Position numbers and translations under genes: made by a program. Positions 46,774 through 51,927 of a stretch of DNA of 59,744 nucleotides are shown in pieces. The notes below the pieces were generated by a model. It saw only the letters and a program-made list of their open reading frames with translations. It ran no database searches and had not been told where the DNA came from. The stretch is from Escherichia coli. Its GTDB lineage: Bacteria; Pseudomonadota; Gammaproteobacteria; Enterobacterales; Enterobacteriaceae. Each line of letters begins with the position of its first letter. Position 1 is the first letter of the stretch. Location: the NCBI RefSeq assembly GCF_003334255.1, contig NZ_QOWU01000029.1. One strand, 5' to 3'.

Positions 46774-48138
46774 ATGTCCACAATTACATTGTTATGCATT
46801 GCGTTAACTGGCGTAATCATGCTGTTGCTGCTGGTCATCAAGGCAAAGGTACAACCATTCGTTGCTCTGCTCCTCGTCAGCCTGTTAGTCGCACTTGCGG
46901 CGGGTATACCGGCGGGCGAAGTGGGTAAAGTGATGATCGCCGGGATGGGCGGTGTGCTTGGTTCCGTCACTATTATTATTGGTCTGGGCGCTATGCTGGG
47001 GCGTATGATCGAACACTCTGGTGGTGCAGAGTCACTGGCTAATTATTTCAGTCGCAAGTTAGGTGACAAACGAACTATCGCTGCGCTGACTCTGGCAGCG
47101 TTCTTCCTCGGTATTCCCGTCTTCTTTGATGTCGGCTTTATTATTCTTGCGCCAATCATTTACGGTTTTGCCAAGGTTGCCAAAATATCGCCACTCAAAT
47201 TTGGCCTGCCTGTCGCTGGGCTCATGCTCACTGTTCACGTGGCGGTACCGCCGCATCCAGGCCCTGTCGCCGCAGCGGGGTTACTCCACGCAGACATCGG
47301 CTGGCTAACCATCATCGGTATTGCGATTTCTATTCCCGTAGGGGTTGTTGGCTACTTTGCAGCGAAAATAATCAATAAGCGCCAATATGCGATGTCAGTA
47401 GAAGTACTGGAACAGATGCAACTGGCTCCGGCCAGTGAGGAAGGCGCGACAAAATTAAGCGATAAAATAAATCCACCGGGCGTCGCGCTGGTCACCTCGC
47501 TAATTGTTATTCCTATCGCGATTATCATGGCGGGTACGGTTTCCGCAACACTGATGCCGCCTTCGCATCCCCTGCTTGGTACGCTACAGCTGATCGGCTC
47601 ACCAATGGTAGCTCTAATGATTGCGCTGGTGCTGGCATTCTGGTTATTGGCTTTACGTCGCGGCTGGAGCTTACAACACACCAGCGACATTATGGGCTCA
47701 GCGCTTCCTACTGCGGCGGTAGTGATTTTGGTTACTGGTGCTGGAGGGGTATTTGGCAAAGTGCTGGTGGAATCGGGCGTCGGCAAAGCCCTTGCCAACA
47801 TGCTACAAATGATTGACCTGCCTCTGTTACCAGCCGCATTTATTATTTCACTGGCGCTGCGTGCATCGCAGGGGTCAGCAACCGTAGCAATACTGACAAC
47901 CGGCGGGTTACTCTCAGAAGCGGTGATGGGATTGAATCCGATTCAGTGCGTATTGGTGACGCTGGCAGCCTGCTTTGGTGGGCTTGGTGCGTCACATATT
48001 AATGACTCAGGGTTCTGGATTGTGACCAAATATCTGGGGTTATCGGTAGCAGACGGTCTGAAAACCTGGACAGTGTTAACGACCATTCTCGGTTTTACCG
48101 GATTCTTAATTACCTGGTGCGTATGGGCGGTAATTTGA
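46774..48138 (+). CDS. ygbN: GntP-family acid-sugar permease, 454 aa
   Basis: ORF track; polytopic GntP-type membrane protein. Confidence 0.9.
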   Translation: MSTITLLCIALTGVIMLLLLVIKAKVQPFVALLLVSLLVALAAGIPAGEVGKVMIAGMGGVLGSVTIIIGLGAMLGRMIEHSGGAESLANYFSRKLGDKRTIAALTLAAFFLGIPVFFDVGFIILAPIIYGFAKVAKISPLKFGLPVAGLMLTVHVAVPPHPGPVAAAGLLHADIGWLTIIGIAISIPVGVVGYFAAKIINKRQYAMSVEVLEQMQLAPASEEGATKLSDKINPPGVALVTSLIVIPIAIIMAGTVSATLMPPSHPLLGTLQLIGSPMVALMIALVLAFWLLALRRGWSLQHTSDIMGSALPTAAVVILVTGAGGVFGKVLVESGVGKALANMLQMIDLPLLPAAFIISLALRASQGSATVAILTTGGLLSEAVMGLNPIQCVLVTLAACFGGLGASHINDSGFWIVTKYLGLSVADGLKTWTVLTTILGFTGFLITWCVWAVI

Positions 48139-48150
48139 CCTTAATAAAAA

Positions 48151-48176
48151 GGTCCGATGGGCATCGGACCTTTTAT
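48151..48176 (+). terminator. Intrinsic terminator downstream of ygbN
   Basis: Hairpin ggtccgatgggcatcggacc followed by ttttatt. Confidence 0.75.
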
Positions 48177-48186
48177 TGTGCACAGA

Positions 48187-48218
48187 AAAGGCCAGCCTCG
48201 CTTGAGACTGGCCTTTCT
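48187..48218 (-). terminator. Intrinsic terminator downstream of rpoS
   Basis: Minus strand reads the hairpin ggccagtctcaagcgaggctggcc followed by ttttct. Confidence 0.75.
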
Positions 48219-48231
48219 GACAGATGCTTAC

Positions 48232-49224
48232 TTACTCGCGGAACAGCGCTTCGATATTCAGCCCCTGCGTTTGCAGGATTTCACGCAAACGGCGCAGGCC
48301 TTCAACCTGAATCTGGCGAACACGTTCACGGGTGAGGCCAATTTCACGACCTACATCTTCCAGTGTTGCCGCTTCGTACCCCAGCAAACCGAATCGACGT
48401 GCCAGCACTTCACGCTGTTTGGCGTTCAGCTCGAACAGCCATTTGACGATGCTCTGCTTCATATCGTCATCTTGCGTGGTATCTTCCGGACCGTTCTCTT
48501 TTTCATCGGCCAGGATGTCCAGCAACGCTTTTTCGGAATCACCACCCAGCGGGGTGTCTACCGAGGTAATGCGCTCGTTAAGACGAAGCATACGGCTGAC
48601 GTCATCAACTGGCTTATCCAGTTGCTCTGCGATCTCTTCCGCACTTGGTTCATGGTCCAGCTTATGGGACAACTCACGTGCGGTTCGCAGGTAAACGTTC
48701 AGCTCCTTTACGATGTGAATCGGCAAACGAATAGTACGGGTTTGGTTCATAATCGCCCGTTCAATCGTCTGGCGAATCCACCAGGTTGCGTATGTTGAGA
48801 AGCGGAAACCACGTTCCGGGTCAAACTTCTCTACCGCGCGGATCAGCCCCAGGTTGCCCTCTTCGATAAGGTCCAGCAACGCCAGACCACGATTGCCATA
48901 ACGGCGGGCAATTTTTACCACCAGACGCAAGTTACTCTCGATCATCCGGCGGCGAGAGGCGACATCTCCACGCAGTGCGCGACGCGCAAAATAAACTTCT
49001 TCTTCGGCCGTTAACAGTGGTGAATAACCAATCTCACCAAGGTAAAGCTGAGTCGCGTCCAACACACGCTGTGTGGCTCCCTGCGATAACAGTTCCTCTT
49101 CGGCCAAATCGTTATCACTGGGTTCCTCTTCTACTAAGGCCTTTTCGTCAAAAACCTCAACTCCGTTCTCATCAAATTCCGCATCTTCATTTAAATCATG
49201 AACTTTCAGCGTATTCTGACTCAT
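48232..49224 (-). CDS. rpoS: RNA polymerase sigma factor RpoS (sigma-38), about 330 aa; the track ORF is extended to 49260
   Basis: ORF track; sigma70-family regions 2-4; canonical start [21 protein letters not shown]. Confidence 0.97.
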
Positions 49225-49286
49225 AAGGTGGCTCCTACCCGTGATCCCTTGACGGAACATTCAAGCAAAAGCCTGGTTCCGCCGAT

Positions 49287-50426
49287 TTATCGCTGCGGCA
49301 AATAACGCAGCGGGTTTACGGATTTCCCCTTGTAACGAATTTCAAAATGCAAGCGTGTTGAACTGGTTCCGGTGCTACCCATGGTTGCTATTTTTTGCCC
49401 CGCCTTCACTTCTTGTTGTTCCCGGACCAGCATTGTGTCGTTATGGGCGTAGGCACTCAGGTAATCATCATTATGTTTGATGATAATCAGATTACCGTAG
49501 CCGCGCAGCGCGTTACCAGCATAAACAACGCGGCCATCTGCGGTCGCGATAATTGCCTGTCCTTTGCTGCCTGCGATATCAATCCCCTTGTTGCCCCCCT
49601 CAGAAGCGCCAAAGGTTTCGATCACTTTGCCCTCAGTCGGCCAGCGCCAGGTGGAGATAGGCGTACTGGTTGATGTACTGCTGACAGTTGGCTCGGTTGT
49701 GCTTGCTGTTGGTACCGTTACAGGCGCTGTGACCGTGGTCGCAGCTGGCTTGTTGTTCGGCAACATTTTGTTAGCACTCTGTTCACCCGAAGATTCAGAA
49801 TACGTAATTGTCGGTTGCGACGCAACAGCAACGGTGGAATTTTGTGCAGGCTTGATCACAACTCCTTGCTCTGCTGCGTCGGCCTGGGTAATGGCATTTC
49901 CGCCAGTGATTGGCGTACCGGAAGCATTACCCACCTGCAAGGTCTGACCAACGTTCAGCGCGTATGGTGCCTGAATATTGTTGCGCTGAGCAAGGTCACG
50001 GAAATCGTTGCCAGTAATCCAGGCGATATAGAAAAGTGTGTCGCCTTTTTTCACGGTATAGGTACTGCCGCTATAACTGCCTTTCGGAATGTTCCCATAC
50101 TGACGGTTATAGACGATGCGTCCGTTTTCCATCTGTACCGGCTGCTGAGCTACTGGCTGCACTGGCTGGATTTGCGGTTGTTGAGTAGCCTGAATTTGTG
50201 GCTGCTGTACCGGCTGAATTTGCGGTTGCTGCGCTGTAGACGTCGTCCCCATTTTCGGCGGCGGCGTAATCAACATACCAGAATTAGTATTTGCAGGCGC
50301 ATTGCCATTAACGGAGCTGACCGGTGCCGGTGGATTTGAAGTGTCAGAACAGCCTGCCAGCCATAGCGAAACCAGTGACAAAGCCGCAATGCGGCGAACG
50401 GTGAATTTTGGGCTTCCCGCGCTCAT
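49287..50426 (-). CDS. nlpD: Murein hydrolase activator NlpD (LysM and LytM domains, lipoprotein), 379 aa
   Basis: ORF track; lipobox LAGCS, Q/P-rich repeat, LysM and M23-peptidase-like C-terminus. Confidence 0.95.
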
Positions 50427-50565
50427 TTATCCCCCAGGAAAAATTGGTTAATAACCAGTGACATAATTACCGTGCAAGGCACCCTACTGAACACTGGAAA
50501 AGATGTTCACGATACGCTGACCTGCGGCAAAATAACCAGGAAAAATCCAGGTATTTCCTCACGTT

Positions 50566-51927
<1,362 letters not shown>

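Follow-up and report, generated by a model that had tools for sequence, protein, structure and literature searches.

The window analysed here, a stretch of 59,744 nucleotides of Escherichia coli DNA, carries the nlpD-rpoS operon in its canonical enterobacterial form, internal promoter included, a reading to which we assign a probability of about 95%. The arrangement, in which the main rpoS promoter and a 567-nt leader lie inside nlpD, is already known, and the current understanding of the locus is unchanged. What the present analysis adds is a map of the constrained parts of the region, which comprise the promoter with its start site, the sites for Hfq, and the final ~20 codons of nlpD plus the intergenic gap. 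It establishes the identities of both genes, their geometry with a 62-nt gap, promoter hexamers identical to those of K-12, a localised constraint on synonymous sites, the complementarity between DsrA and a conserved pairing hub, a predicted pairing of that hub with the rpoS ribosome-binding site (RBS), and a covarying hairpin in the gap.

On the minus strand of 50426..48232, two tandem open reading frames (ORFs) follow each other, nlpD and then rpoS (Table 1). The product of the first was identified by the NCBIfam equivalog NF008123 (678.7 bits against a cutoff of 311), and its reading frame closes with a TAA stop codon at 49289-49287; the product of the second was identified by NF004207, with a score of 604.6 bits that is well above the cutoff. 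A segment of 1,351 nt, comprising nlpD and the beginning of rpoS, agrees at every base (100% identity) with many complete E. coli genomes, such as ATCC 8739, and when used as a query it was matched in 5,422 of 5,426 genomes, every time on the chromosome. Across 80 rpoS loci, fetched as one genome per species, nlpD is located directly upstream of rpoS on the same strand in all sampled loci with sufficient upstream sequence, with the exception of two loci of Ca. Pantoea edessiphila.

Table 1. Features of the nlpD-rpoS region in window coordinates; negative positions of the promoter hexamers and positive positions are relative to the transcription start, all other negative positions are relative to the rpoS ATG.
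Feature	Window position	Strand	Basis
nlpD CDS, 379 aa, murein hydrolase activator lipoprotein	49287..50426	(-)	ORF, NCBIfam, Pfam, RefSeq annotation of identical or near-identical DNA
LysM domain of NlpD, aa 123-165	50060-49932	(-)	Pfam
Peptidase_M23/LytM domain of NlpD, aa 279-372	49592-49311	(-)	Pfam
Putative -35 hexamer TTGCGT (-34..-29), nlpD codons 201-203	49820..49825	(-)	17 nt upstream of the -10
Putative -10 hexamer TATTCT (-11..-6), nlpD codons 209-210	49797..49802	(-)	placed from the published start site
Main rpoS transcription start	49791	(-)	transferred from the literature on K-12 (567 nt upstream of the ATG)
rpoS 5' leader, 567 nt	49225..49791	(-)	published start site and arithmetic; raised synonymous-site conservation inside
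Start-proximal conserved block (+1..+52)	49740..49791	(-)	third-position identity
(AAN)4 Hfq distal-face motif AACAACAAGAAG (-196..-185), nlpD codons 336-340	49409..49420	(-)	motif match; function from PMC3458560, PMC3783183
A6 Hfq-binding element CAAAAAAT (-173..-166), nlpD codons 344-346	49390..49397	(-)	motif match; PMC3458560, PMC3783183
sRNA pairing hub, putative cis-antisense strand TTGAAATTCGTTACAAGGGGAAATCCGTAAACCC (-121..-88), nlpD codons 361-372	49312..49345	(-)	conservation and duplex energies
Hairpin CGCTGCG-N8-CGCAGCG, last nlpD codons (372-379)	49291..49312	(-)	MFE fold and consensus fold of 39 sequences
Covarying hairpin in the intergenic gap (-59..-27)	49251..49283	(-)	folds of short-gap Enterobacterales loci
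rpoS ribosome-binding region GGGATCACGGGTAGGAGCCACCTT-ATG..., 3' strand of the predicted inhibitory stem	49205..49250	(-)	MFE fold; invariant in Enterobacteriaceae
rpoS CDS, 330 aa and stop	48232..49224	(-)	ORF, NCBIfam; ATG at 49224-49222

Between the last base of the nlpD stop codon and the first base of the rpoS ATG lie 62 untranslated nt (49286..49225), and the RefSeq annotation of MG1655 also gives 62 bp (nlpD 2867614-2868753, rpoS 2866559-2867551). The first-pass annotation had placed rpoS 26 bp downstream of nlpD, which is wrong for both genomes and inconsistent with its own positions of 49287 for the nlpD stop and 49224 for the rpoS start; the figure is either 62 transposed or the outcome of confusing two start codons. 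The ATG at 49224 is the real rpoS start. It is preceded by the Shine-Dalgarno (SD) sequence AGGAG at -12..-8 (49236-49232), and the GGGATCACGGGTAGGAGCCACCTTATG segment at the rpoS start shows no or almost no variation among 22 Enterobacteriaceae; the stretch around 49260 lacks such conservation. The chance that translation begins instead at the in-frame ATG at 49260, which would yield a 342-aa protein, a 26-nt gap and a leader shorter by 36 nt, is in our judgement vanishingly small. That codon does lie exactly 26 nt past the nlpD stop, as in the earlier figure, and in the mechanical ORF list the rpoS frame begins there; nevertheless, the 342-aa ORF start was rejected, since no SD sequence precedes it, it sits within the 3' arm of the conserved gap hairpin, and neither the ATG nor its reading frame is conserved outside Escherichia. 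Among the sampled Enterobacterales loci whose rpoS start aligns to an ATG, none has a 26-nt gap; the gaps there range from 48 to 126 nt and are not multiples of three apart, so that the frame is not kept. Moreover, the alignment to the NCBIfam RpoS model (329 positions) begins with the first residue of the 330-aa product, which is also the product annotated in RefSeq.

The internal promoter of K-12, rpoSp, and its 567-nt leader were reportedly described by Lange and Hengge-Aronis in 1994 and by Lange et al. in 1995. According to published work, rpoS transcription starts mainly at a site within nlpD that precedes the ATG by 567 nt (PMC10948607, PMC8545128, PMC6582626); in the window, this position belongs to nlpD codon 212, which is part of the linker joining the LysM and M23 domains. 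The putative -35 and -10 hexamers are located inside nlpD at about -600..-573 from the rpoS ATG, separated by a 17-nt spacer, and both are identical to those of K-12 MG1655. In the alignment of 22 Enterobacteriaceae, the GTTGC of the -35 region is invariant, and ACAATTACGTATTCTGA, which forms the -10 block (window 49813-49797 region), is invariant in 22/22, third codon positions included. A sigma-70 consensus scan called no promoter anywhere in 48100-50700, rpoSp being passed over because its hexamers match the sigma-70 consensus at only 7/12 positions by our count; this silence fits a weak, regulated promoter and provides no positive evidence for one.

The same silence inside nlpD would be expected if rpoS were essentially the second gene of a simple operon, transcribed from promoters upstream of nlpD, with the interior of nlpD having no separate regulatory role. 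The two genes are indeed co-oriented, the 62 nt that separate them contain no terminator-like site, and the literature accepts for exponential phase a low level of bicistronic nlpD-rpoS mRNA driven by promoters that precede nlpD (PMC10948607). We nonetheless consider such a simple operon very unlikely, given that published mapping puts the main stress-responsive start inside nlpD, that the synonymous sites of the promoter block do not vary among 22 genera, and that synonymous constraint climbs precisely where the promoter lies and a second time over the Hfq and sRNA sites, a pattern unexplained by a pure coding role. The core of what the first-pass annotation had proposed, a main rpoS promoter and a leader of several hundred nucleotides within nlpD as the target of sRNAs and Hfq, is therefore borne out by the literature start site, the K-12-identical hexamers and the synonymous-site footprint, with the correction that part of rpoS transcription starts upstream of nlpD. 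Its derivation of the internal promoter from the shortness of the gap is a non sequitur, as nothing about an internal promoter follows from the closeness of two genes.

Constraint on synonymous sites was quantified as the pairwise identity at third positions of codons with a conserved amino acid, in an alignment of 22 Enterobacteriaceae. The identity is 0.49 upstream of the promoter (n=91) versus 0.72 in the leader part of nlpD (n=125), with a Mann-Whitney p=7e-12 that overstates independence, the species being related, although comparing one gene across the same taxa controls for most of that. Invariant third positions number 4/91 upstream of the promoter and 32/125 in the leader, and codons 201-220 reach an identity of 0.79. 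Codon alignments of 50 Enterobacterales resolve the pattern further: against background identities of 0.45 in pcm, 0.52 in rpoS and 0.47 in nlpD codons <200, the values are 0.76 for nlpD codons 201-220 (promoter and start site), 0.41-0.52 for codons 222-320 (middle of the leader), 0.67 for codons 321-338 (the (AAN)4 region) and 0.89 for codons 361-379, from the sRNA hub to the stop. Judged from these alignments, the extra constraint is confined to three blocks, one at the promoter and start site, one around the (AAN)4/A6 motifs for Hfq, and one in the final ~20 codons. The earlier claim that any variation in the 3' half of nlpD is also regulatory variation for rpoS overreaches, because the middle of the leader (codons ~222-320) is under no extra constraint; mid-leader variants should not be taken as regulatory by default.

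Wherever an Enterobacterales locus has an intact nlpD upstream of rpoS, the hub shows 0-3/34 mismatches, and it is frozen even where the whole NlpD protein is only ~52-60% identical. The same codons show 6-13/34 mismatches in Vibrionales, Aeromonadales and Alteromonadales, groups in which homologues of the E. coli sRNAs were not found (PMC8545128). The conservation of synonymous sites in the 3' part of nlpD could in principle stem from another cause, such as selection on the translational efficiency of nlpD, an antisense transcript, or a locally low rate of mutation or recombination; conservation alone does not name its cause, and within E. coli the density of variable sites declines gradually towards the 3' end without sharp blocks, albeit in a small sample. 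We regard such a cause as extremely unlikely, since the peaks coincide with independently defined elements (promoter, (AAN)4/A6 and sRNA hub), the hub is complementary to DsrA, and its freeze does not extend beyond the order from which these sRNAs are reported. The background values of pcm, rpoS and the mid-leader are likewise contrary to a regional effect on mutation rate. Regulation of rpoS by elements embedded in nlpD remains the preferred explanation.

The first 505 nt of the leader correspond to nlpD codons 212-379 and the stop codon, with the whole M23 domain included, and the last 62 nt to the gap. In its start-proximal block, a second GAACAACAAG motif occurs at 49758-49749, which is the window's only other copy of the (AAN)4 core, and a pattern match identified a CRP-like TGCGA-N6-TCACA at 49743-49728, centred at +56.5, which presumably corresponds to the published CRP site. 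At synonymous sites, the first ~50 nt of the leader (49791-49740) match the promoter in conservation. Conceivably, they hold an uncharacterised element, for example a second determinant of Hfq binding, RNA stability or Rho loading, rather than only an ArcA/CRP footprint, and separately the common A/G polymorphism at 49794 (-3) could make the promoter stronger or weaker in different E. coli lineages; we consider these suggestions tentative and rather unlikely. Further downstream, the (AAN)4 motif and the A6 element correspond to the Hfq sites described in the rpoS leader (PMC3458560, PMC3783183). The (AAN)4 motif carries 0-2 mismatches in most Enterobacteriaceae and lies 60-80 nt upstream of the sRNA site, matching the published spacing of the Hfq site, and Hfq is predicted to bind here.

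Pairing of the leader with sRNAs was evaluated with sRNA sequences taken from the MG1655 record, using seed-restricted segments for the duplexes. For the single-stranded 5' part of DsrA, the most stable leader duplex lies at -127..-96, with a dG of -31.8 kcal/mol against -18.1 for any other site, a margin of 13.7. The best site of RprA, at -133..-94, is also the hub, with a margin of only 3.5 kcal/mol, and ArcZ pairs at -114..-96 with a dG of -18.1 kcal/mol, although other leader sites are better by energy alone. Two other procedures were discarded: whole-length RNAduplex runs of the sRNAs against the full leader gave meaningless long-loop duplexes, and when full-length sRNAs were used in windowed duplexes, GC-rich terminator hairpins prevailed and the outcome was no better than for shuffles. 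No Rfam family was found over the rpoS leader, either in the whole window at gathering thresholds or in 47500-51500 at E<=1. The Rfam searches returned only two weak chance matches, both in the rpoS 3' terminator area.

In the minimum free energy fold of 49375-49195, the hub pairs with the SD and AUG region, with a z of only -1.94, modestly better than shuffles. In the window's own fold, 13/19 nucleotides of the RBS are paired with the hub. Single-sequence folds of 39 Enterobacterales have 8-17 of the 19 RBS nucleotides paired in every one, and RBS-hub pairing of at least 8/19 nt appears in 21/39. The published inhibitory stem between hub and RBS was not recovered in the RNAalifold consensus of the 39 distal leaders; this stem is beyond the reach of covariation because hub and RBS are nearly invariant. 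The hairpin over nlpD codons 372-379 is present in the 39-sequence consensus fold, where one of its pairs varies from CG to UA or UG. The gap hairpin occurs in 39/39 short-gap loci, in 36 distinct sequences with many compensatory stem changes; its mean z is -3.6, and z falls below -2 in 35/39 loci. As far as the aligned sequences tell, this hairpin is clearly maintained by compensatory changes.

The region was also compared with reference strains for polymorphisms in the leader, as the first-pass annotation had suggested. The window differs from K-12 MG1655 by 8 substitutions in 2,501 nt, with no indels. Six are in nlpD, one of them upstream of the promoter (50208, synonymous) and five in the promoter and leader: A for G at 49794 (-3 from the start site; synonymous, Glu211), G for A at 49745 (+47), which gives NlpD Ala228 instead of Thr, and synonymous changes in the leader at 49689, at 49407 directly 3' of (AAN)4 and at 49386, 3' of A6. 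In rpoS, codon 33 is GAG (Glu) in the window versus CAG (Gln) in MG1655, and one further change is synonymous. Every nlpD difference from MG1655 recurs in other sampled E. coli alleles, and position 49821 in the -35 hexamer is G/T polymorphic in the species. Among complete E. coli genomes, the promoter 61-mer of the window is found exactly in 1,623/5,420 and the Hfq-site 66-mer in 4,286/5,426; these counts denote exact copies of the window stretches rather than single-SNP alleles, and for the 66-nt query K-12-type double variants fall below the megablast word size. The five promoter and leader differences are therefore common E. coli polymorphisms and not private variants, with genome-wide counts bearing on three of the nlpD differences. 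Across 11 E. coli alleles picked over the identity range, which show a trend in a small sample, the density of variable sites per 100 nt is 4.0 in the 5' part of nlpD, 3.3 in the promoter block, 2.6 in the mid-leader, 1.4 in the distal block and 1.6 in the 62-nt gap, and no variable site occurs from the hub to the nlpD stop in these 11 alleles.

The mechanism proposed for this locus follows the known system, and the start site, Hfq binding, sRNA activation and Rho attenuation are taken by analogy from the literature on it. RNA polymerase would start the main rpoS transcript inside nlpD at ~49791 (codon 212), generating the 567-nt leader. In this transcript, the 34-nt segment encoding NlpD residues 361-372 is predicted to fold onto the rpoS SD/AUG, limiting translation. 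Hfq bound to (AAN)4 and A6, 40-85 nt upstream, would aid the pairing of DsrA, RprA or ArcZ with the same 34-nt segment, and this pairing would free the RBS. In published work, DsrA, RprA and ArcZ act together with Hfq to open the inhibitory stem, and Rho attenuates transcription in the leader (PMC10948607, PMC8545128, PMC3458560, PMC3783183, PMC6582626); on that literature, the action of sRNAs and Hfq may here also counteract Rho-dependent termination within the leader. Low-level rpoS expression would additionally derive from nlpD-rpoS read-through transcripts begun upstream of nlpD. Deletion of nlpD phenocopies the loss of rpoS, the main rpoS promoter being removed (PMC5745457). Disruption of nlpD thus removes the main rpoS promoter, and therefore some "silent" nlpD changes are not silent for RpoS.

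Compared with the nlpD-rpoS operon of E. coli K-12, the window has the same genes, order, strand and 62-nt gap, and the -35/-10 hexamers, (AAN)4, A6, sRNA hub, gap sequence and RBS are identical; it differs by the six nlpD and two rpoS substitutions. With the "anti-antisense" activation of rpoS by DsrA, RprA and ArcZ it shares an upstream strand predicted both to sequester the RBS and to pair with the sRNAs, as well as A-rich Hfq sites 60-80 nt upstream, and nothing sets it apart at the sequence level. Here the promoter, the sites for Hfq and the antisense strand all double as protein-coding sequence, a known peculiarity of rpoS. In other Gammaproteobacteria, nlpD is likewise directly upstream of rpoS in all sampled loci of Vibrionales, Aeromonadales and Alteromonadales, and start sites inside nlpD with a long leader are also described in Vibrio cholerae and Pseudomonas aeruginosa (PMC8545128). 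Unlike in Enterobacterales, the hub codons of Vibrionales, Aeromonadales and Alteromonadales drift at synonymous sites, which is consistent with different sRNA regulators in these groups.

The rpoS leader contains a motif, GAACAACAAG, that is present in two copies in the whole 59.7-kb window, against 0.17 expected by chance, and both of them are located within the leader (table below). One copy is part of a published Hfq-binding motif, and the other falls in a block with raised synonymous conservation. The leader also includes a G-poor, C-rich segment in which the C/G ratio reaches 2.0 (78-nt windows). Rho attenuation has been published for this leader, and the segment is a candidate site of Rho utilisation. 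A comparable C-rich stretch is present in the 5′ part of nlpD, which makes the signal non-specific.

Coordinates of sequence features in the window
Feature	Position	Strand	Remarks
GAACAACAAG copy	49412-49421	minus	forms the core of the published (AAN)4 Hfq motif
GAACAACAAG copy	49749-49758	minus	+34..+43 relative to the start site
C-rich leader segment	49634-49776	minus	candidate Rho-utilisation region
C-rich stretch, nlpD 5′ part	50244-50141
Hairpin	49251-49283	minus	immediately 3′ of the nlpD stop
nlpD start, RefSeq/PGAP	50381	minus	in-frame TTG, codon 16; 364 aa
nlpD start, K-12 record	50426	minus	ATG; 379 aa
rpoS codon 33	49128	minus	GAG (Glu)
tRNA genes, two adjacent	148-317	minus

The untranslated interval between nlpD and rpoS harbors a hairpin that is maintained by compensatory changes in 39/39 short-gap Enterobacterales loci; among these, 36 different sequences occur and z averages -3.6. 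The hairpin lacks a downstream U-run and therefore does not resemble an nlpD terminator. In several Enterobacteriaceae (rpoS loci L002, L006, L007, L008, L015, L020 and L044) the gap extends to 103-126 nt, owing to an insertion of ~45-65 nt that lies after the nlpD stop and before the conserved ribosome-binding (RBS) block of rpoS.

The annotated start of nlpD differs between records: the TTG is used by RefSeq/PGAP in all nine sampled genomes, versus the upstream ATG in the K-12 record, and the choice between them has no effect on the rpoS leader. Elsewhere, the two tRNA genes are the only gathering-level Rfam matches across the whole window.

Damaged alleles of the nlpD-rpoS locus are easily found in other genomes. 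A frameshifted rpoS is annotated in two of the nine sampled E. coli genomes, O157:H7 86-24 (L088) and ATCC 25922 (L093), while in STEC409 (hit H1) an IS1 element is inserted within nlpD. The rpoS gene on the contig of the E. albertii type strain (NBRC 107761, L052:2501-3802) carries an in-frame internal duplication of ~312 nt, repeating amino acids ~61-164. The insect-symbiont genomes of Candidatus Pantoea edessiphila (L053 and L054) retain rpoS, and upstream of it the NlpD C-terminal coding sequence, the 34-nt sRNA pairing site (hub) and the conserved RBS block were not found. Within the rpoS coding sequence of the window, codon 33 encodes Glu, versus CAG (Gln) in the K-12 reference MG1655; this position is a classic polymorphism of the K-12 lineage (Gln or amber), with Glu the usual allele of natural isolates.
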